A DNA stretch of 64,000 nt from Escherichia coli (GCF_013315695.1 NZ_CP054353.1); one strand, 5' to 3'. Shown: positions 5,646 to 47,354, counted from the stretch's first letter. The notes: generated by a model not told the origin, from the letters alone. Made by a program: numbers and translations.

Positions 5646-6521
5646 TCAGGAAACGTGTTGCTGTGGGCTGCGACGATATGCCCAGACCATCATGATCACA
5701 CCCGCGACAATCATCGGGATGGAAAGAATTTGCCCCATGCTAATGTACTGCACCCAGGCACCGGTAAACTGCGCGTCGGGCTGGCGGAAAAACTCAACAA
5801 TGATGCGAAACGCGCCGTAGCCAATCAGGAACAAGCCTGAGACAGCTCCCATTGGGCGCGGTTTACGAATATACAGGTTGAGGATAATAAACAGCACCAC
5901 ACCTTCCAGCAGCAGCTCGTAAAGCTGTGATGGGTGGCGCGGCAGCACACCGTAAGTGTCGAAAATGGATTGCCACTGCGGGTTGGTTTGCAGCAGCAAA
6001 ATATCTTCTGTACGGGAGCCAGGGAACAGCATGGCAAACGGGAAGTTTGGGTCAACGCGGCCCCACAATTCACCGTTAATAAAGTTGCCCAGACGCCCGG
6101 CACCAAGACCAAACGGAATGAGTGGGGCGATAAAATCAGAAACCTGGAAGAAGGAACGTTTAGTACGGCGGGCGAAGATAATCATCACCACGATAACGCC
6201 AATCAGGCCGCCGTGGAAGGACATGCCGCCGTCCCAGACACGGAACAGATACAGCGGATCGGCCATAAACTGCGGGAAATTGTAGAACAGAACATAACCA
6301 ATACGTCCACCGAGGAAGACGCCGAGGAAGCCCGCATAGAGTAAGTTTTCAACTTCATTTTTGGTCCAGCCGCTGCCCGGACGATTCGCCCGACGTGTTG
6401 CCAGCCACATTGCAAAAATGAAACCCACCAGATACATCAGGCCGTACCAGTGAAGCGCCACGGGTCCTATTGAGAAAATGACCGGATCAAACTCCGGAAA
6501 ATGCAGATAGCTACTGGTCAT
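5646..6521 (-). CDS. lgt: prolipoprotein diacylglyceryl transferase
   Basis: 291-aa polytopic membrane protein ORF immediately upstream of thyA (lgt-thyA operon arrangement). Confidence 0.95.
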
Positions 6522-6671
6522 CTGTCACCACAAGTTCTTGTTATTTCGCTGAAAGAGAACAGCGATTGAAATGCGCGCCGCAGGTTTCAGGCGCTCCAAA
6601 GGTGCGAATAATAGCACAAGGGGACCAGGCTGGTTGCCGGATACCGTTAAAAGATATGTATATGATCCGCG

Positions 6672-8918
6672 CTATAACCCTCCGCGAATCAGCCCGCCCA
6701 TGCCGCGACGCTCCATAAAGGCTGCAACCTGATGGCGAACTTCGGTCGCCAGTTGCGCTTCCAGACTACGCTGCGCAAGATTTTCTGCTTCAGCAAAATC
6801 AATGCGCCGCAGCAGGTATTTTACGCGCGCTACAGAACGTCCGTTCATAGACAGATGGCGATACCCAAGCCCAATGAGGATTGCCACGCACATGGGATCG
6901 CCCGCCATTTCACCGCACAAACGGAGATCGATACCATGTATTTCCGCTTCCCGGGCGATCATCGCCAGAGCTCGTAACATTGCAGGATGAAGACTGTCAT
7001 AAATGTTCGCCACCCGGGTATTGTTGCGATCAACGGCCAGGATGTATTGCGTCAGATCGTTGGTGCCAACAGAGATGAAATCGACCCGCTTTGCCAGATG
7101 CGGCAGCATAAATACCATTGACGGCACTTCCAGCATGATGCCGATACGTGGTTTGGGAATTTCGTAACCGATCATCTCCTCGACTTCACGTCCGGCACGT
7201 TCAATCAGGCGGCGTGCTTCGTCAACTTCATCGAGGCTTGTGACCATCGGCAACAGAATATTCAGGTTGCCCGTAGCGGCATTAGCACGCAGCATCGCCC
7301 GTACCTGGATCAAGAAGATCTCCGGCTGATCGAGCGTAATGCGAATCCCACGCCAACCCAGGCATGGATTCTCTTCGCTGATCGGCATGTAAGGCAGCTG
7401 CTTATCTGCTCCGACATCCAGCGTACGCAAGGTGACGGGTTTATCATTGAACATTTGCAGCATCCCCTGATACTGCGCCACCTGTTCTTCTTCCGACGGA
7501 AAGCCACTTTGCAGCATGAATGGGATTTCAGTGCGATAAAGTCCTATGCCATCAATACGGCTGCCCAGTTTTTCTTCATGTTCCGGGCTTAAACCGGCAT
7601 TGAGCATGACTTTTATACGCTCACCGCTTTTTAACTGCGCGGGTAAATTGACGTCATCTTCCGCCAGACGGCTAAGCTCAATCTCTTCACTAATTAGCCG
7701 CTGATATTCTTGCAGCAGTACCGGCTCCGGATCGACCAGCAATTCACCGCGATAACCATCGACGATCAGCGTCCGACGATGCAGTACCGAAGGCTGAATA
7801 TCCGCGCCCATCACGGTAGGGATCCCCAGCGCACGTACCATGATCGCAGCATGGGAGTTGGCAGCGCCATCGCGCACGACAACACCGACTAAGCGATCCT
7901 GGGGCAGCTCAGCAAGCGTTGTCGCTGACAGTTCATCTGCCACCAGAATGAAACGTTCCGGCCAGGCGTTCGGCCCTTGATTAGCGTCATCAAGATGAAA
8001 CAGCAATCGCTGGCCCAGCGCACGTAAATCGCCAGCCCGCTCTTTGAGATAGTTATCGCTTAGCGCGGCAAACTGTTCGGCAAATTTTTCAATGACCGTT
8101 TTTACCGCCTACTCTGCCACCGAGCCTTTATCAACCTCGGCAAACAATTCGCGACGCAGCCGGGTGTCCGAAAGCAGGTGCGAGTAAAGATCGAAAATAG
8201 CCGCCGTTTCTTTTTGTGCACCGGCGGCAAAGCGTTTGCTGTAGCGGCGAAACTCGTTTGCCGCTTCTTCCAGCGCCCCGGTCAGTCGTTCGCGTTCCAG
8301 AGCCGGATCCAGCGTTGATGCCTGATACACCTGTTCCATTAAAGGTAACGTGGCATCCTGCCAGCCTTCGGCAATCGCCACACCAGGTGCTGCCGGTAAT
8401 GCGCGGATTCGCGTCTGGCGATATTGCCCAAACAAGGCAGTCAACTGCGACTGAGAAAGAATAGCTGCCATCTGGGTGGCAAGCGTCACCAGGAAGGATT
8501 CTTCACTTTCGTCATACTGGCGCAACTCTCGTTGCTGTACCACCAGTACACCAAGCAACTGGCGACGTTGAATAATTGGTACGCCTAAAAATGCGCGGAA
8601 ACGTTCTTCTTTTACGGAGGGGACGTATTTGAATCTGGGGTGCTTTTGCGCATCTGCAAGGTTTATCGGTTCCGCCAGCCTGCCAACCAGGCCGACGATC
8701 CCTTCATCAAACGCGAGCGTTACAGTGCGACCGCGTGGTTTTTTCAGCCCCCGGGTCGCCATCAGGTAGTAACAACGTCGATCATGATCGGCAAGGTAAA
8801 CCGAACAGACCTCGGTATCCATCGCAAGACAGATGTCGGTAACCAGAATATTTAACGCCTCATTCAGGCGTGGTGCGCTGGCTACCTTTTCGACTATTTC
8901 GCGCAGGCGAGTGAGCAT
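6672..8918 (-). CDS. ptsP: PTS-Ntr enzyme I (GAF domain + PEP-utilising enzyme), reading frame interrupted by an in-frame TAG at 8109-8111
   Basis: Two track ORFs (8109..8918, 269 aa, and 6672..8006, 444 aa) are in the same frame and together span 749 codons; the upstream ORF ends ...DKGSVAE then TAG, and translation continues in frame as AVKTVIEKFAEQ...; the only interruption is a single amber codon. Confidence 0.85.
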
Positions 8919-8930
8919 AATTGGCGTGAC

Positions 8931-9461
8931 TTAACCTCTTTTACGTCGATAAGCAGATGCGTTTTGTGGTTTTGGCGTATTTTCCTGCAGTGACATCACC
9001 ACACTCGCGAACTCTTTCATTACCCTACGGTAGACATCACGTTTAAATGACACCACCTGTCTGACCGGATACCAGTAACTTACCCATCGCCAGCCGTCAA
9101 ACTCTGGTGTACTGCTGGTTTGCATATTGATTTCTGCATCGCCGCTCACCAGCTGCAAGAGAAACCATTTTTGTTTTTGGCCGATACAAACCGGCTTCGT
9201 GTCCCAACGCACCAAACGTTTCGGTAATTTGTAGCGCAACCAGTTACGCGTTGAAGCAAGGATTCGAACGTCTTTACGGCTTAATCCTACTTCTTCAAAC
9301 AATTCACGGTACATCGCCTGCTCTGCGGATTCTCCGGGGTTGATTCCGCCTTGCGGAAATTGCCAGGAGTGCTGACCAAATCGCCGGGCCCACATTACCT
9401 GCCCCTGGCGATTACAAATCACGATACCTACGTTTGGGCGGTAGCCATCGTCATCAATCAC
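8931..9461 (-). CDS. rppH: RNA pyrophosphohydrolase (Nudix)
   Basis: 176-aa ORF with Nudix box ([22 protein letters not shown]); position upstream of ptsP. Confidence 0.95.
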
Positions 9462-9599
9462 CGGACTACCTCAAAATAAAGCTTTATATACGAATGATTG
9501 TTTCATACTCCAGGAAGACGGTAAACCACTCTCTGCAGGGCATTACACACTAATAACAATTGAATAACTCACAGTTATGTGCAGAGTTATAAACAGAGG

Positions 9600-9960
9600 A
9601 AGGGGTGGATAGCCGTTTTTATTCACCTTTTCTGTGGATAGAGTTGTGAAGAACTACGGAATTACTACGGGAAAACCCGGAGCATTCTGAATAAGCCCGA
9701 TATAGACATTTTAAAATATTCATTATTAGTCAATGCATTACATGTAATTTTAGTAATAAAAAAGAGTAATTCGTGACCCAGGTCACACCTCTCATTTACG
9801 GGTTGGCGAAAGATCAACCAATGCCGTATTTATCCACAGAATGTGCCACTAAGTTAAGCACTGAACCACTAAAAACTGGAGTTTCGTCGCACGTCAAGGC
9901 TGTAAATGGAAACAGTAGTGGAGGTTTTTCACAGTTATCCCAGCTTTCTGTGGATAACAT
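9600..9960. promoter_or_regulatory. DnaA-box cluster in the rppH-mutH intergenic region, consistent with DARS2 (DnaA-reactivating sequence 2)
   Basis: Perfect or near-perfect DnaA boxes (TTATCCACA consensus) read directly at about 9624-9632 (tgtggatag, minus orientation), 9830-9838 (ttatccaca), 9923-9931 (agttatccc, degenerate) and 9942-9950 (tgtggataa); DARS2 is described as lying between the rppH(ygdP) and mutH genes. Confidence 0.6.
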
Positions 9961-21248: not shown

Positions 21249-22667
21249 TCAGACGCCGATATTTCTCAACTTTTCGCCTGCCATCAGTTTGCGCTCGATA
21301 TGTTCCAGCGTGACATTTTTGGTTTCCGGAATGAGCCAGAAAGTAATGCCCACAAACGCAATGTTCAGCGCAGTGTAGAGCCAGAACGTACCGGCAGCGC
21401 CAATGCTATCAAGCAGTGTCAGGAAGGTCGCGCCGATAATCATATTCGACACCCAGTTTGTCGTCGTCGAACAGGTGATGCCAAAATCGCGGCATTTCAG
21501 CGGCTGAATCTCAGAGCACAGGATCCACACCACTGGCGCGGCGCTCATCGCATAACCGGCAATACACATCATCGTCATGCCAACAGAGAGCCAGGACAAG
21601 CCACTGGAAGCCGTACCGTTATCAAACTGCATCAGGCAATAGCCCAGCACCAGAGTGCCTAACGCCATCACGCTGAAACCAATTTTCAGAGCCGGTTTAC
21701 GCCCTGCTTTATCTACCGTAAAGACCGCAATGAAGGTGGCGAACATAAAGGTCAGCCCCACGACCAGAGTCGCAATCATCTGTTGTTCTGTGGTCGTAAA
21801 GCCCGCCATTTTGAAGATACGCGGCGCGTAGTACATGATGATGTTCATACCGGTAAACTGCTGCATCGCCTGCAACAACATACCGAGAAACACAGCACGA
21901 CGGACGTTACGGTTGATCTTAAACAGTGCCCAACCGCCCTGTTTTAACTTCAGGCTTTCACGAATTTCGTTGAGTTCTTCTCGCGCTTTTTCCGACGTAT
22001 CGCGCAGCATACGCAATACTTCTTCCGCCTCAATATGACGCCCCTTTTCCGCCAGCCAGCGCGGGCTATTTGGCAGGAAGACCACCAGAATAATCAGCAG
22101 AACTGCTGGTAAAGCAAGAACCCCCAACATTGCGCGCCAGTTACCGCTATAACTGAACGCTGTATCGGATAAAAACGCCAGCACGATGCCGAGAGTGACC
22201 ATCAACTGGTACATGCTGATCATCTTACCGCGAACGTTTTCACTTGCCATTTCAGAAAGATACAGAGGAGCGGTGTAAGACGCGATCCCGACAGCAATGC
22301 CCAACACCACACGAGCGGCGATTAACATCTCTACGCTGGTCGCAAAAGCGGACCCTATCGAACCGAGTACAAACAGGATGGCCCCCGCCATCAGGCTGTA
22401 TTTACGCCCCAGGCGGAACGACAGCCAACCATTAAACAGCGCACCAATTGCTGCGCCGAGCATCATGCTACTGACCACCCATTCCTGCAAACGACTGGTC
22501 AGTACAAAGTGATCGGTAATGAACGGCAACGCTCCGGCGATTACGCCGATATCAAGACCAAATAACAATCCTGCGACCGCAGCAGCTACCGAAACAAACA
22601 TATTCATACGCCGCGTATCCCGCAAAGAACGTGGCGTTAAAGCAGATTCCGTATTGATAGTAACCAT
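21249..22667 (-). CDS. araE: arabinose:H+ symporter (MFS)
   Basis: Track ORF 21249..22796 trimmed to [42 protein letters not shown]..., 472 aa, sugar porter. Confidence 0.93.
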
Positions 22668-22739
22668 TTTTTCCTGCCAGCAGAGAGTAAGACATAGTGA
22701 AAAAATACGTGAACAATTCACACAGGTGTCAGGTCGGAA

Positions 22740-22920
22740 ATAGCATAAATATGGATTAAATTGCTGCGACATGTCGTTATGTGATGGATATTCCAATTTT
22801 CAAATTAAGTTGAATTATTGAGATTATTATTAACCAACTAATTTTAAAGCAGATAAAATTCATAAAGTTCACTAATTGATAATTGATATGGATTATTTCA
22901 TAACCATGATATGGATTATG
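22740..22920. promoter_or_regulatory. araE upstream region containing repeated TATGGAT-type motifs (candidate AraC half-sites)
   Basis: Four copies of (a/g)atatggat(t/a)a at about 22748, 22782, 22884 and 22907; the last two (tgatatggattat) are a 13-bp direct repeat spaced 23 bp apart; motif resembles the reverse complement of the AraC half-site TAGCATTTTTATCCATA. Confidence 0.4.
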
Positions 22921-22933
22921 ATGATCTGCAGGT

Positions 22934-22960
22934 ATAAAAAACCCTGCCATGCGGCAGGGT
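22934..22960 (-). terminator. rho-independent terminator downstream of kduD
   Basis: Hairpin accctgcc/ggcagggt preceded on the plus strand by an A-run (a U-tract on the minus-strand transcript). Confidence 0.6.
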
Positions 22961-22981
22961 CATAAAAGTAAGAAGAATGGA

Positions 22982-23743
22982 TTAACGAGCCAGCCAACCG
23001 CCATCCACGGCAATGGTATAACCATTCACATAATCTGAAGCACTGGAGGCAAGAAACACTACCGGCCCCATCAGGTCACTCGGCAGTCCCCAACGGCCAG
23101 CTGGAATGCGGTCGAGAATTTCCGCGCTACGTTGTTCATCTGCCCGTAGTTGTTGAGTATTGTTGGTCGCCATGTAACCCGGAGCTATCGCATTAACATT
23201 AATGTTGTGTTTAGCCCATTCATTCGCCATCAATCGCGTCACGCCCATCACGCCGCTTTTTGATGCGGTATAAGAAGGCACACGGATCCCGCCCTGGAAG
23301 GAGAGCATTGACGCGATATTGATAATCTTGCCGCCATTGCCTTGCGCGATAAAGTGTTTCGCCGCTGCCTGAGACATGAAGAATACGCTCTTGATATTCA
23401 GGTTCATGACATCGTCCCAGTCTTTTTCGCTGAACTCGAGAGCATCTTCGCGGCGAATCAATCCGGCGTTATTCACCAGGATATCAATATGACCAAACTC
23501 AGCTACCGCGCGATCCAGCAGTGCTGGAATGCCATCAATCTTTCGCAGATCGGCGGTCAGGCTTAAAAAACGACGCCCCAGCGCCGTGACCTGCTTGATG
23601 GTTTCAGTCGGTTCAACGATGTTAATGCCAACAATGTCACAGCCCGCTTGCGCCAGCCCCAACGCCATCCCCTGGCCCAGTCCAGTATCACAACCAGTGA
23701 CGACCGCAACTTTACCTTCGAGAGAAAATGCACTTAAAATCAT
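22982..23743 (-). CDS. kduD: 2-dehydro-3-deoxy-D-gluconate 5-dehydrogenase (SDR)
   Basis: 253-aa short-chain dehydrogenase ORF (TGCDTGLGQGMALGLA Rossmann motif). Confidence 0.95.
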   Translation of the reverse strand: MILSAFSLEGKVAVVTGCDTGLGQGMALGLAQAGCDIVGINIVEPTETIKQVTALGRRFLSLTADLRKIDGIPALLDRAVAEFGHIDILVNNAGLIRREDALEFSEKDWDDVMNLNIKSVFFMSQAAAKHFIAQGNGGKIINIASMLSFQGGIRVPSYTASKSGVMGVTRLMANEWAKHNINVNAIAPGYMATNNTQQLRADEQRSAEILDRIPAGRWGLPSDLMGPVVFLASSASDYVNGYTIAVDGGWLAR

Positions 23744-23772
23744 AACAATACCTTATTCGTTTATGCCGACAA

Positions 23773-24609
23773 CTAGCGCAAATCTTTAACGGCCACATGG
23801 TCCATATCATCAAAGACCTGGTTTTCACCGACCATGCCCCAGATAAAGGTATAAGCTTTGGTTCCGACGCCGGAATGGATCGACCAGCTCGGGGAGATCA
23901 CCGCCTGCTCGTTATGCATCACAATGTGACGCGTTTCTTGCGGCTGCCCCATCATGTGGAAAACGCAGGCGTCATCATCCATATTGAAATAGAAATAAAC
24001 TTCCATCCGGCGCTCGTGGGTGTGACACGGCATGGTGTTCCACAAGTTACCCGGAGCCAGCTCCGTCAGCCCCATACTCAATTGGCAGGTTTCCAGCACA
24101 TCCGGGACAAAATATTTGTTAATCGTGCGACGGTTGCTGGTGAGGTTATCGCCTAACGTGACTGGAGATACTTCGTCCGGTGTGACTTTTTTGGTGGGAT
24201 ACGTCGTATGCGCGGGTGCGCAATTGTAATAAAACTTCGCCGGAGTGGCGGTATCAATACTGGCAAAGACAACTTCTTTTGCACCTTTACCAACATACAG
24301 GGCGTCGCGGTGACCGATTTCATAGCATTGACCATCGACAGTAATCGTACCGGCACCGCCAATATTGATAACACCTAACTCGCGACGTTCCAGGAAATAG
24401 CTTACCCCGAGTTGTTTACCAACTTCCCCGCCAACGGAAACCGTTTTAGTTACCGGCATAATGCCGCCAACAATAATACGGTCAATGTGGCTGTAAACCA
24501 TGGTGTACTCATCGGCGACAAATACCTTTTCAACCAAAAATTCATTGCGCAACCCCTGGGTATCCAGCGTTTTTGCATGCGCACTGTGGATGCTCTGTCT
24601 TACGTCCAC
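23773..24609 (-). CDS. kduI: 5-dehydro-4-deoxy-D-glucuronate isomerase
   Basis: 278-aa ORF upstream of kduD; KduI-like cupin. Confidence 0.93.
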
Positions 24610-24895
24610 ATCAACCTCCGATAATCAGTAAAGCGTGAAAATAGAAAACGATAGTGAAACGCTGTTTCGTTTTCTCTATAAGGGGATGATATGCCCACGG
24701 GATAGGGTTTTCAATTAAAAATAAAACAATGTTTCATTTTTAAGGTAAGGACTGAAAAAAGTGCAGTGTCGATCACGAATATGTCATGAGAATGGAAAAA
24801 TCAGGGAGCCCTGAAAATGTATGTCGACTCGCCAGCCACCATTATTCAACAGATTAATGACGGCTGATATTTATCGGTAAGGAGGAAATGCAGAG

Positions 24896-26080
24896 CTATT
24901 CGTCACGTTCAATGGTCAATGCCACGCCCTGGCCCCCGCCGATACAAAGCGTAGCCAGTCCTTTGCGGGCATTACGTTTCACCATTTCATGAACCAGAGA
25001 AACCAGGATTCGGCAACCGGACGCGCCTATTGGGTGACCGAGCGCGATCGCACCACCATTAACATTGACCCGACGCTCATCCCATTCAAGCATCTTGCCA
25101 ACCGAAAGCGCCTGAGCAGCAAACGCTTCATTAGCCTCAATAAGATCGACATCAGCCAACTGCCAGCCGACACGTTCCAGGCAACGGCGTGTCGCATACA
25201 CCGGCGCAATTCCCATTAATGCCGGATCTACACCAACGCTGGCAAATGCGCGAATGCGGGCAAGCACGGGTAAATTCAACGCTCGCGCTTTGGCTTCGCT
25301 CATCATCATTACCGCAGCTGCGCCATCGTTTATGGATGATGCATTACCCGCTGTCACAGAACCGAGACTATCAAATGAAGGATTTAAACGGGCCAAGCCT
25401 TCTGCACTGGCGTCAGTGCGTGGCTGTTCATCGGTATCAACAACCAACGCCTGACCGTTACTTTGGGCCATTACCGGGACGATTTCATCTTTAAATCGTC
25501 CGGCGTCAATCGCCGCTCGCGCTTTTTGTTGCGAGCTAAGTGCGTAAGCATCCTGCAACTGACGGCTGATGCCATATTCGCGAGCCAGATTTTCGGCGGT
25601 GACACCAATATGATAATCATTGAAGGCATCCCACAAGCCGTCATGCACCAGACTATCAACCAACTGGCTATTGCCAAGCTGTGCACCGGTGCGGCTATCA
25701 GTCAGAACATGTGGTGCGCGACTCATGTTTTCCTGACCACCGGCGATGACAATATCAGCCTCGCCACACTGTATCGCCTGAGTAGCCAGATGCAGTGCTT
25801 TAAGCCCGGAACCACAAACGTCATTAATAGTGATTGCAGAAACGCTATTAGGAAGACCACCTTTAATAGCCGATTGCCTTGCCGGATTCTGCCCTGCCCC
25901 TGCAGTCAACACCTGACCAAGAATTACTTCATCCACCGCATATGCAGGAACGCCGGTACGTTCTATTAACGCTTTCACGACCAGACTACCAAGTTCCACA
26001 GCGGAATGACCCGCTAACGCACCACGAAAGCAGCCGATAGGTGTCCGTAACGCCCCGACAATCACAACGTCTTTCATCAC
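24896..26080 (-). CDS. yqeF: acetyl-CoA C-acetyltransferase (thiolase II)
   Basis: 394-aa thiolase ORF (MKDVVIVGALRTPIG...). Confidence 0.93.
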   Translation of the reverse strand: MMKDVVIVGALRTPIGCFRGALAGHSAVELGSLVVKALIERTGVPAYAVDEVILGQVLTAGAGQNPARQSAIKGGLPNSVSAITINDVCGSGLKALHLATQAIQCGEADIVIAGGQENMSRAPHVLTDSRTGAQLGNSQLVDSLVHDGLWDAFNDYHIGVTAENLAREYGISRQLQDAYALSSQQKARAAIDAGRFKDEIVPVMAQSNGQALVVDTDEQPRTDASAEGLARLNPSFDSLGSVTAGNASSINDGAAAVMMMSEAKARALNLPVLARIRAFASVGVDPALMGIAPVYATRRCLERVGWQLADVDLIEANEAFAAQALSVGKMLEWDERRVNVNGGAIALGHPIGASGCRILVSLVHEMVKRNARKGLATLCIGGGQGVALTIERDE

Positions 26081-26331
26081 AACCTCGCACCAATTAACAG
26101 TGCAATAGTAAATGATTGTTAATTACAGTTATCTTAATTGTTTAAAAAAAGTGACTATTATCACAAAGGAAATACGCCTGAGTAGCAGTCAGAGACATAA
26201 CTGGCACGTAAGGTTTGCAACCACTAACCCACCAATAGAGGGGTAGAAAGGGCGTTAATCTCCCATACTTAACCTGGTTTATGGTAAATTGCCCTCCATT
26301 TTGTTTAATTTGTAGATGATACGTTCAGATA

Positions 26332-38657: not shown

Positions 38658-39425
38658 GGTGATGCTGCCAACTTACTGATTTAGTGTATGATGGTGTTTT
38701 TGAGGTGCTCCAGTGGCTTCTGTTTCTATCAGCTGTCCCTCCTGTTCAGCTACTGACGGGGTGGTGCGTAACGGCAAAAGCACCGCCGGACATCAGCGCT
38801 ATCTCTGCTCTCACTGCCGTAAAACATGGCAACTGCAGTTCACTTACACCGCTTCTCAACCCGGTACGCACCAGAAAATCATTGATATGGCCATGAATGG
38901 CGTTGGATGCCGGGCAACAGCCCGCATTATGGGCGTTGGCCTCAACACGATTTTACGTCACTTAAAAAACTCAGGCCGCAGTCGGTAACCTCGCGCATAC
39001 AGCCGGGCAGTGACGTCATCGTCTGCGCGGAAATGGACGAACAGTGGGGCTATGTCGGGGCTAAATCGCGCCAGCGCTGGCTGTTTTACGCGTATGACAG
39101 GCTCCGGAAGACGGTTGTTGCGCACGTATTCGGTGAACGCACTATGGCGACGCTGGGGCGTCTTATGAGCCTGCTGTCACCCTTTGACGTGGTGATATGG
39201 ATGACGGATGGCTGGCCGCTGTATGAATCCCGCCTGAAGGGAAAGCTGCACGTAATCAGCAAGCGATATACGCAGCGAATTGAGCGGCATAACCTGAATC
39301 TGAGGCAGCACCTGGCACGGCTGGGACGGAAGTCGCTGTCGTTCTCAAAATCGGTGGAGCTGCATGACAAAGTCATCGGGCATTATCTGAACATAAAACA
39401 CTATCAATAAGTTGGAGTCATTACC
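38658..39425 (+). mobile_element. insAB: IS1 insertion sequence, copy A (768 bp; insA 38713-38988, insB 38907-39410)
   Basis: Terminal inverted repeats ggtgatgctgccaacttactgat ... atcaataagttggagtcattacc; InsA (91 aa) and overlapping InsB (167 aa) frames. Confidence 0.97.
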
Positions 39426-44855: not shown

Positions 44856-44929
44856 GCGGGCGTAGTTCAATGGTAGAACGAGAGCTTCCCAAGCTCTATA
44901 CGAGGGTTCGATTCCCTTCGCCCGCTCCA
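44856..44929 (+). tRNA. glyU: tRNA-Gly (anticodon CCC)
   Basis: 74-nt cloverleaf gcgggcgtagttcaatggtagaacgagagcttcccaagctctatacgagggttcgattcccttcgcccgctcca; anticodon loop ttCCCaa; 3-prime CCA encoded. Confidence 0.95.
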
Positions 44930-45162: not shown

Positions 45163-46608
45163 ATGAAAGGGAAATCTACATTAACTCTTCTGCTCGCTGG
45201 TATATTTTCGTACGGCACATGCCAGGCGGCAGGGGCAGAAGTGACGAGTGAATCTGTATTTAACATTCTTAATTCCACGGGGGCAGCAACTGATAAAAGT
45301 TATTTATCGTTAAATCCAGATAAGTATCCTAATTATCGTCTTCTGATTCACTCAGCCAAATTAAAAAATGAAATAAAGAGCCACTATACCAAAGACGAAA
45401 TTCAAGGATTGTTAACATTAACAGAAAATACACGAAAGTTAACGTTGACGGAGAAACCCTGGGGAACATTTATTCTTGCTTCTACTTTCGAAGATGACAA
45501 AACAGCGGCAGAAACCCACTATGATGCTGTCTGGCTGAGGGATAGTTTATGGGGCTATATGGCATTAGTATCAGATCAGGGAAATAGTGTAGCCGCAAAA
45601 AAGGTTCTGCTCACTCTGTGGGAATATATGTCTACGCCCGACCAGATTAAGCGGATGCAGGACGTCATTAGCAACCCAAAACGACTGGATGGTATTCCTG
45701 GGCAAATGAATGCTGTACATATCCGATTTGACAGCAACTCCCCCGTGATGGCAGATGTGCAGGAAGAAGGCAAGCCGCAGCTGTGGAACCATAAACAAAA
45801 TGATGCGTTAGGTCTTTATCTTGATCTCCTTATACAAGCAATCGACACTGGTACTATTAACGCTGAAGATTGGCAAAAAGGTGACCGATTAAAATCGGTT
45901 GCGCTGCTGATTGCTTATCTGGATAAAGCCAATTTCTATGTTATGGAAGATTCCGGAGCGTGGGAGGAAGATGCCCGATTAAACACATCTTCCGTTGCAC
46001 TGGTGACCTCTGGACTGGAACGTTTGTCAAACCTACTCTCGAAGAAAGACTCTGTTTTTGTCTCTGATTTACTACGCGAAGCTAAAGCCAATGAACTGGA
46101 TGAACCACTTTCAACAACGAGGTTGAACCACCTCATAGATAAAGGTTATGAAAGAATAACGCTACAGCTTGATTTAGGGGGAGAATCTCCTGGTTATCTG
46201 GAAAAAGATAAACATTACAGAGAAGCCGATGCGGCTTTACTTAATGTTATTTATCCTGCAAATCTTTCAAAGATAAACACCAGAAGAAAAGAGCAAGTTC
46301 TAAAAATAGTTAAAAAACTAGCAGGTCCGTATGGTATAAAAAGATACGAGAAGGATAATTATCAGTCGGCAAATTTTTGGTTCAATGATATTAAAACCGA
46401 TACCGATCAAAATTCACATGCGAAAAGAGAAATGAGCTTCATTCCATCAACAGAAGCAGAATGGTTTTTTGACTCATGGTATGCAAAATCAGCAGCAATT
46501 GTTTATAAAGAATCAAGAAAAGAAGAGTATTTGAATGACTCAGTGCAATTTATGAATAGATCATTGGCCCAAATAACAGGCGAGAAGGTAATGACTCCAA
46601 CTTATTGA
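45163..46608 (+). CDS. glycoside hydrolase family 15 (glucoamylase-like) lipoprotein, ygeQ-like; 3-prime end runs into IS1
   Basis: Long ORF with signal peptide/lipobox ([16 protein letters not shown]) and GH15-like motif (DAVWLRDS); the last ~7 codons and the stop are supplied by IS1 sequence starting at 46587, so the native C-terminus is missing; start codon uncertain (45121-45163). Confidence 0.6.
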
Positions 46609-47354
46609 TAGTGTTTTATGTTCAGATAATGCCCGATGACTTTGTCATGCAGCTCCACCGATTTTGAGAACGACAGCGACTTCCGTCCCAGCCGTGCCAG
46701 GTGCTGCCTCAGATTCAGGTTATGCCGCTCAATTCGCTGCGTATATCGCTTGCTGATTACGTGCAGCTTTCCCTTCAGGCGGGATTCATACAGCGGCCAG
46801 CCATCCGTCATCCATATCACCACGTCAAAGGGTGACAGCAGGCTCATAAGACGCCCCAGCGTCGCCATAGTGCGTTCACCGAATACGTGCGCAACAACCG
46901 TCTTCCGGAGCCTGTCATACGCGTAAAACAGCCAGCGCTGGCGCGATTTAGCCCCGACATAGCCCCACTGTTCGTCCATTTCCGCGCAGACGATGACGTC
47001 ACTGCCCGGCTGTATGCGCGAGGTTACCGACTGCGGCCTGAGTTTTTTAAGTGACGTAAAATCGTGTTGAGGCCAACGCCCATAATGCGGGCTGTTGCCC
47101 GGCATCCAACGCCATTCATGGCCATATCAATGATTTTCTGGTGCGTACCGGGTTGAGAAGCGGTGTAAGTGAACTGCAGTTGCCATGTTTTACGGCAGTG
47201 AGAGCAGAGATAGCGCTGATGTCCGGCGGTGCTTTTGCCGTTACGCACCACCCCGTCAGTAGCTGAACAGGAGGGACAGCTGATAGAAACAGAAGCCACT
47301 GGAGCACCTCAAAAACACCATCATACACTAAATCAGTAAGTTGGCAGCATCACC
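46587..47354 (-). mobile_element. insAB: IS1 insertion sequence, copy B (768 bp; insA 47024-47299, insB 46602-47105), inverted relative to copy A
   Basis: InsA and InsB ORFs identical in protein sequence to copy A but on the minus strand; terminal inverted repeats at 46587 and 47354. Confidence 0.97.

Follow-up and report, generated by a model that had tools for sequence, protein, structure and literature searches.

RESULTS

The ptsP locus and its internal stop codon

The window analysed here is a 64,000-nt stretch of DNA from one strain of Escherichia coli. It carries ptsP, the gene for enzyme I-Ntr (EI-Ntr), on the minus strand (Table 1). EI-Ntr is the first enzyme of the nitrogen-related phosphotransfer relay. 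The gene occupies its conserved chromosomal place (rppH-ptsP-lgt), where five complete genomes have an annotated ptsP in syntenic position, and it belongs to the same operon as rppH (PMC4635465). A promoter and terminator scan of 6300-9800 gave nothing above shuffled expectation.

The ptsP frame comprises 749 codons, and its translation contains one internal stop, a TAG at codon 270, roughly one third into the gene, around which the minus strand reads GGC TCG GTG GCA GAG TAG GCG GTA AAA ACG. The ORF list contains two pieces of this frame. The N-terminal ORF (8109-8918) begins with ATG and encodes 269 residues that end in FAEVDKGSVAE, and the downstream ORF (6672-8006) has 444 residues counted from a TTG codon. 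In an NCBIfam profile search with the PtsP equivalog model NF008283 (748 positions), the N-terminal piece corresponds to positions 1-269 and the remainder to positions 271-747, and thus the stop stands for exactly one residue in an otherwise collinear ptsP. The single internal TAG is therefore confirmed: translation and the ORF list bear out the first-pass annotation, which had placed a lone TAG at codon 270 and had given the same coordinates and flanking peptide. A chance test does not apply to the stop because it is a point difference in a conserved gene and not a statistical pattern.

Table 1. Features of the ptsP region (positions counted from the first base of the window)
Feature	Position	Strand	Remarks
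ptsP (EI-Ntr), whole frame with one interruption	6672..8918	-	Syntenic with ptsP annotated as intact in MSB1_4I, AF3, AF14, MS 21-1 and SMS-3-5
Premature amber stop, W270*	8109..8111	-	cta on the plus strand; changed base 8110
Still-translatable 269 codons	8112..8918	-	GAF domain (window 8460-8867) and residues 174-269 of PEP-utilisers_N; Pfam, NF008283
Codons 271-749, now untranslated	6672..8108	-	Rest of PEP-utilisers_N, mobile His domain and PEP-binding domain; NF008283 profile, Pfam
Codon 95, AGC to AGA, S95R	8634..8636	-	GAF domain; private; changed base 8634; 61-mer in no complete genome
Codon 539, GTG to GTA, V539V	7302..7304	-	Synonymous; private; changed base 7302; 61-mer in no complete genome
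Codon 356 CAT, phospho-acceptor His356	7851..7853	-	Downstream of the stop; sequence, PDB alignment, PMC4635465
TTG codon 305, first in-frame start-type codon after the stop	8004..8006	-	Preceded by GGGCCAGCGA; no Shine-Dalgarno match
rppH, upstream gene of the rppH-ptsP operon	8931..9461	-	Identical to relatives

Ancestral codon 270 and the search for the mutant allele

Codon 270 is TGG in all 12 other ptsP copies that were read, namely those of MSB1_4I, AF3, AF14, MS 21-1 and SMS-3-5 and seven copies from other lineages. W270* is thus a single G-to-A transition on the coding strand. This alignment is the check that the first-pass annotation had proposed, and it upholds the one-base change from a Trp codon TGG to TAG that was suspected there. 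An in-frame stop located at a sense codon of intact orthologs and absent from close relatives is the signature of a nonsense pseudogene.

The allele was then sought in larger collections. None of 5,426 complete E. coli genomes contains an exact copy of the 61-mer centred on the TAG, and 5,423 of them match it at 95-99% identity. Relatives that share the stop and use a downstream restart, a scenario that had been named as evidence against a knockout, were found neither among the 12 copies nor among these genomes. The exact 31-mers of W270* and S95R gave 0 matches in JGI metagenome contigs, a weak null obtained with no positive control. Both the 269-residue fragment with Arg95 and the Trp-restored full-length protein with Arg95 are absent from a large gene-product index. 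The 269-residue fragment with the ancestral Ser95 did match seven Logan contigs. In every one of them the gene is cut by the contig end and has no stop codon, and these matches were rejected as an exact-length artefact. The seven short contigs (L019-L024) derive from different sequencing runs and end at ptsP nucleotide 807/808, before the mutated base, six of the seven at the same base. Ends just before the mutated base are most likely a side effect of a query for a protein that is exactly 269 residues long. Some database records are unusual in their own right: a search with window 7960-8260 returned one ptsP-matching place on a plasmid record and one genome with two ptsP places, and one of the 5,426 genomes did not match the 25-kb query anywhere.

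Domains retained and lost in the truncated product

What does the premature stop remove from EI-Ntr? In the Trp-restored protein, Pfam assigns GAF to residues 18-153, PEP-utilisers_N to residues 174-294, PEP-utilizers (the mobile His domain) to residues 320-391 and PEP-utilizers_C (the PEP-binding domain) to residues 420-707, which is the domain order of PtsP/enzyme I-Ntr (NF008283, PRK11061). The E. coli EI-Ntr N-domain structures PDB 5T1O and 5T12 align to residues 170-375 and have Q at the His position of NSHAAIM, which corresponds to codon 356 here. His356 is the phosphorylatable residue, and the H356A protein fails to complement a ptsP mutant (PMC4635465). The GAF domain binds glutamine, which is inhibitory, and alpha-ketoglutarate, which is stimulatory (PMC13104625).

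The first-pass annotation had the stop separating the GAF domain from the catalytic region. The stop does precede His356 and the PEP-binding domain, but it is located inside PEP-utilisers_N and not at the GAF boundary. The 269-residue product therefore consists of the GAF domain and about 80% of PEP-utilisers_N. With both His356 and the PEP-binding domain gone, phosphate should no longer be transferred to NPr and EIIA-Ntr, which supports the loss of PtsP-dependent phosphorylation predicted on first inspection. The 269-residue product scores 508.3 bits against NF008283, under the cut-off of 583, and the frame provides no uninterrupted polypeptide that includes His356. By descent this ptsP is a member of the family; as encoded, it would not be a functional one.

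Downstream starts and tRNA genes

No Shine-Dalgarno-backed in-frame start was found after the stop at or before codon 305, and the first ATG after the stop is codon 360, beyond His356. A product of residues 305-748 would be devoid of residues 174-304, essentially the whole of PEP-utilisers_N, and residues 270-304 would be present in neither piece. The only tRNA gene of the window is Gly(CCC) at 44856-44929, and the window encodes no suppressor tRNA. A programmed recoding or read-through site would have a stop that is conserved in relatives. The TAG is private among the 12 copies and the 5,426 genomes, and ptsP codon 270 is therefore not a conserved recoding site.

Relatives of the strain and accuracy of the assembly

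Over its first 25 kb, the window differs by 3-4 bases from MSB1_4I (rectal swab, Australia) and AF3 (blood culture, UK). Stretches of 100% identity extend over 22,239 bases with MSB1_4I and over 13,086 and 4,627 bases with AF3. Only four point differences, at 7302, 8110, 8634 and 32006, distinguish the window from both sister genomes over about 62 kb. These long perfect matches and the small number of differences indicate that the base accuracy of the window's assembly is high. The base 9727T is common to the window and MSB1_4I only, which identifies MSB1_4I as the sister of the window.

The C-to-T difference at 32006 changes codon 5 of ygeG (YgeG T5I). It is not found in the four closest complete genomes, but 12 independent contigs in public collections (ENA metagenomes, Logan) carry it. 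The private differences of the window thus include verified real variation, and T5I marks a sublineage that includes the strain of the window. One of the T5I contigs, 42 kb in length and from a metagenome (ERZ27238810 k111_47610), runs 108 bases into IS1 at the exact junction of the window (38657/38658). Judged indirectly from product look-ups, this contig appears to encode none of the mutant products. The MutH allele of the lineage occurs in 1,847 blocks, and its look-up gave an unrelated complete genome.

The window contains two identical, inverted 768-bp copies of IS1 (38658-39425 and 46587-47354). Beside the first copy, a segment of 8,340 bp is missing from the ETT2 type III secretion cluster; MSB1_4I still has it (22240-30579 of the matching MSB1_4I sequence, from an escN fragment into prgH). 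The missing segment looks like an IS1-adjacent deletion, and the ERZ27238810 contig has the same IS1 junction as the window. At 36243-36250, MSB1_4I has a 1-bp indel relative to the window and AF3, and a hypothetical gene annotated as frameshifted in MSB1_4I is intact in AF3.

Three private substitutions in ptsP

Of the four point differences that separate the window from the sister genomes, three lie in ptsP, within 1.3 kb of each other, and the gene differs from that of the sister strains at 3 of 2,247 bases. They are S95R, W270* and V539V. The first-pass annotation had recognized the stop and overlooked the other two. S95R was considered as a second damaging change and rejected. Among 39 PtsP homologs, Arg is the commonest residue at this position (Arg 15, Ser 8, Ala 7), and S95R is thus probably benign.

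With uniformly distributed SNPs, the probability that at least three of four fall in the 2.25-kb ptsP is about 2e-4. Given one already in ptsP, the probability that at least two of the other three join it is about 4e-3, and this value rises to about 0.04 if, by our own estimate, only about a quarter of the sites outside the dead gene are effectively neutral. The clustering reaches nominal significance, with a p of about 0.004-0.04 according to the neutral model chosen. Drift in an older pseudogene, a single clustered event and coincidence are candidate explanations.

Two sources of clustering were rejected. Templated mutagenesis or gene conversion finds no repeat of more than 10 bases elsewhere in the window that carries any of the variant bases. 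General hypervariability of ptsP in the clone is not seen either: the close relatives AF14 and MS 21-1 show roughly the one private ptsP change apiece that is expected. In each case it is a missense change in the catalytic domain (P494L in AF14, V636G in MS 21-1) that is absent from the other compared genomes. The recent tip changes in ptsP of the clone are mostly non-synonymous, and the ptsP of the distant strain SMS-3-5 has 12 differing sites, all of them synonymous.

Other disruptions of ptsP in public assemblies

The exact 444-residue downstream ORF occurs in 114 blocks of an assembly collection, and the lesions were read at six of these places. They include a single-base deletion from an A5 run (codon 278), Q282* (CAG to TAG), the duplication of 7 bp at codon 292 and a tandem duplication. 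Q282* was seen in two distinct ptsP sequences, one with 29 and the other with 15 differences from AF3, which suggests recurrence or recombination. Since the 444-residue ORF is called only for lesions between about codons 267 and 305, these cases are a small sample of all ptsP disruptions. Lineage-wide ptsP pseudogenes were also considered and rejected: the codon 278 deletion and Q282*, which come from draft and metagenome assemblies, are absent from all 5,426 complete genomes, and hence the loss of ptsP is sporadic and rare.

DISCUSSION

ptsP of the present strain is interrupted by W270*, which we regard as very probably a genuine and recent null allele that is private to the strain. A G-to-A change on the coding strand would turn the TGG codon of Trp270 into an amber codon and terminate translation after 269 residues. 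The product would keep the GAF domain that senses glutamine and alpha-ketoglutarate and most of the helical NPr-binding subdomain. Devoid of His356 and the PEP-binding domain, it is not expected to autophosphorylate from PEP or to pass phosphate to NPr. NPr and EIIA-Ntr would then be mostly unphosphorylated, and the relay would no longer report nitrogen status. The predicted phenotypes are those of a ptsP deletion, namely hypersensitivity to salt, sucrose, ethanol and SDS via dephospho-NPr and altered potassium homeostasis via dephospho-EIIA-Ntr. The sugar-PTS enzyme I reportedly cross-phosphorylates NPr at a low level, and the phenotype would then be milder than predicted. The other two private changes in ptsP, S95R and V539V, are probably neutral passengers. 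Two observations sit uneasily with this null-allele interpretation. Three private substitutions in 1.3 kb are unusual for a simple recent point mutation and could mean a local artefact or a single unusual event. Moreover, the allele is in no other public sequence searched and is so far without independent confirmation.

Could the strain nevertheless have a working EI-Ntr? If the TAG were an error of sequencing, polishing or assembly, perhaps together with the other two ptsP differences, the gene would be intact. The uniqueness of the allele, which was found neither in the 5,426 complete genomes nor in JGI metagenome contigs or the gene-product index, would be expected of an error, and the confinement of three private differences to 1.3 kb resembles a local quality problem. 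In addition, 7302 is two bases from a CCAGG (Dcm) motif, and the Dcm-motif context troubles some nanopore basecallers. However, the rest of the window equals independent assemblies base for base over tens of kilobases that include many CCWGG sites, and both 8110 and 8634 lie outside methylation motifs. The changes are substitutions, in contrast to the homopolymer indels typical of long-read errors, and random errors would not cluster in one gene. A random base-call error that hits a stop-creating position in so clean an assembly is possible, but it is not the likelier reading, and we consider an artefact quite improbable. It is far less probable still that the genuine TAG leaves ptsP functional, through an amber suppressor tRNA, natural read-through or a split enzyme with a restart at TTG 305. 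The downstream frame is fully intact with a synonymous change as its only difference, and the 444-residue ORF from the TTG at 8006 is called as a gene in other split-ptsP assemblies. An intact downstream frame is, however, expected after any recent nonsense mutation. The absence of the stop from all other copies and genomes searched, the Gly(CCC) gene as the only tRNA of the window, the TTG codon devoid of a Shine-Dalgarno sequence and the location of the next ATG after His356 all argue against residual function. A restart product without PEP-utilisers_N, with residues 270-304 missing from both pieces, points in the same direction.

The remaining explanations accept that ptsP is null and concern the origin of the cluster. 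The three changes may have arisen in one event, such as recombination with an unsampled donor over a short patch, a 'mutation shower' during error-prone repair, or mutagenesis or allele exchange in the laboratory. This origin appears somewhat unlikely, although the low probabilities calculated above for the clustering favour it. Outside ptsP the branch lengths of the window and MSB1_4I are similar (one change for the window and one to two for MSB1_4I in about 62 kb), and the two neutral-looking changes, an Arg that is common in homologs and a synonymous substitution, fit hitch-hiking in one tract. No donor emerges, however: the 61-mers of all three changes are absent from complete E. coli genomes, and the 31-mers of W270* and S95R are absent from JGI metagenomes. 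There is no templating repeat nearby, since the longest shared k-mers, at 10 bases, are at chance level. The types of change are mixed (two G-to-A and one C-to-A on the coding strand) and carry no single mutagen signature. Under relaxed selection on an older pseudogene, with non-synonymous sites constrained elsewhere, the clustering is significant only at a p of about 0.04, which also counts against a single event. A further explanation, which we hold to be unlikely, is positive selection for the loss of ptsP in the host, as for ptsP mutations in mouse-gut colonisation experiments, with the excess of private changes reflecting repeated or clustered changes in a gene under selection. If so, ptsP would be a gene whose function is lost time and again in natural E. 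coli associated with humans. In a weaker variant of this selective explanation, the 269-residue GAF fragment alone might act as a glutamine- and alpha-ketoglutarate-binding protein.

As a probable null allele, W270* is an ordinary strain-specific knockout of a well-known non-essential regulator; it is not a new kind of feature and is not surprising alone. For annotation, ptsP in the present strain should be flagged as a pseudogene. For physiology, the nitrogen-PTS relay of the strain would be assumed to be locked in the unphosphorylated state, which predicts sensitivity to osmotic and envelope stress and altered potassium handling. W270* is also a further natural case among the few independent ptsP disruptions known from wild E. 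coli, and it adds to the experimental reports of adaptive ptsP loss.

Among the closest counterparts of W270* are the split alleles read in public assemblies. They are independent disruptions within 25 codons of W270* that leave the identical 444-residue downstream ORF, but they have other lesions in other strain backgrounds, and none carries W270*. MG1655 cells deleted for ptsP accumulate dephospho-NPr and become hypersensitive to salt, sucrose, ethanol and SDS as a result (PMC4635465). The same result is expected here, with dephospho-NPr and dephospho-EIIA-Ntr accumulating and stress hypersensitivity following. However, the K-12 deletions are engineered, whereas W270* is a point mutation of natural origin, known from the sequence of a wild, human-associated lineage, and may leave a 269-residue GAF fragment. 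In Fe(II)-evolved E. coli K-12, ptsP C519* and a 1-bp deletion swept, and thus ptsP loss can be favoured (PMC7937436). Those alleles resemble W270* as single-base changes that terminate ptsP prematurely, but C519* is located at codon 519 rather than 270, and they arose in a laboratory strain under defined selection. In mice, ptsP was mutated repeatedly across hosts, and the study termed the gene a new target in the adaptation of commensal E. coli (PMC7064181). Both that study and the present strain involve gut-associated E. coli; the mouse work followed experimental colonisation by a known ancestor, whereas a single genome is considered here, for which adaptation is only possible. Taken together, the published deletion mutants, the laboratory sweeps and the mouse-gut mutations indicate that the loss of ptsP is viable and sometimes favoured.
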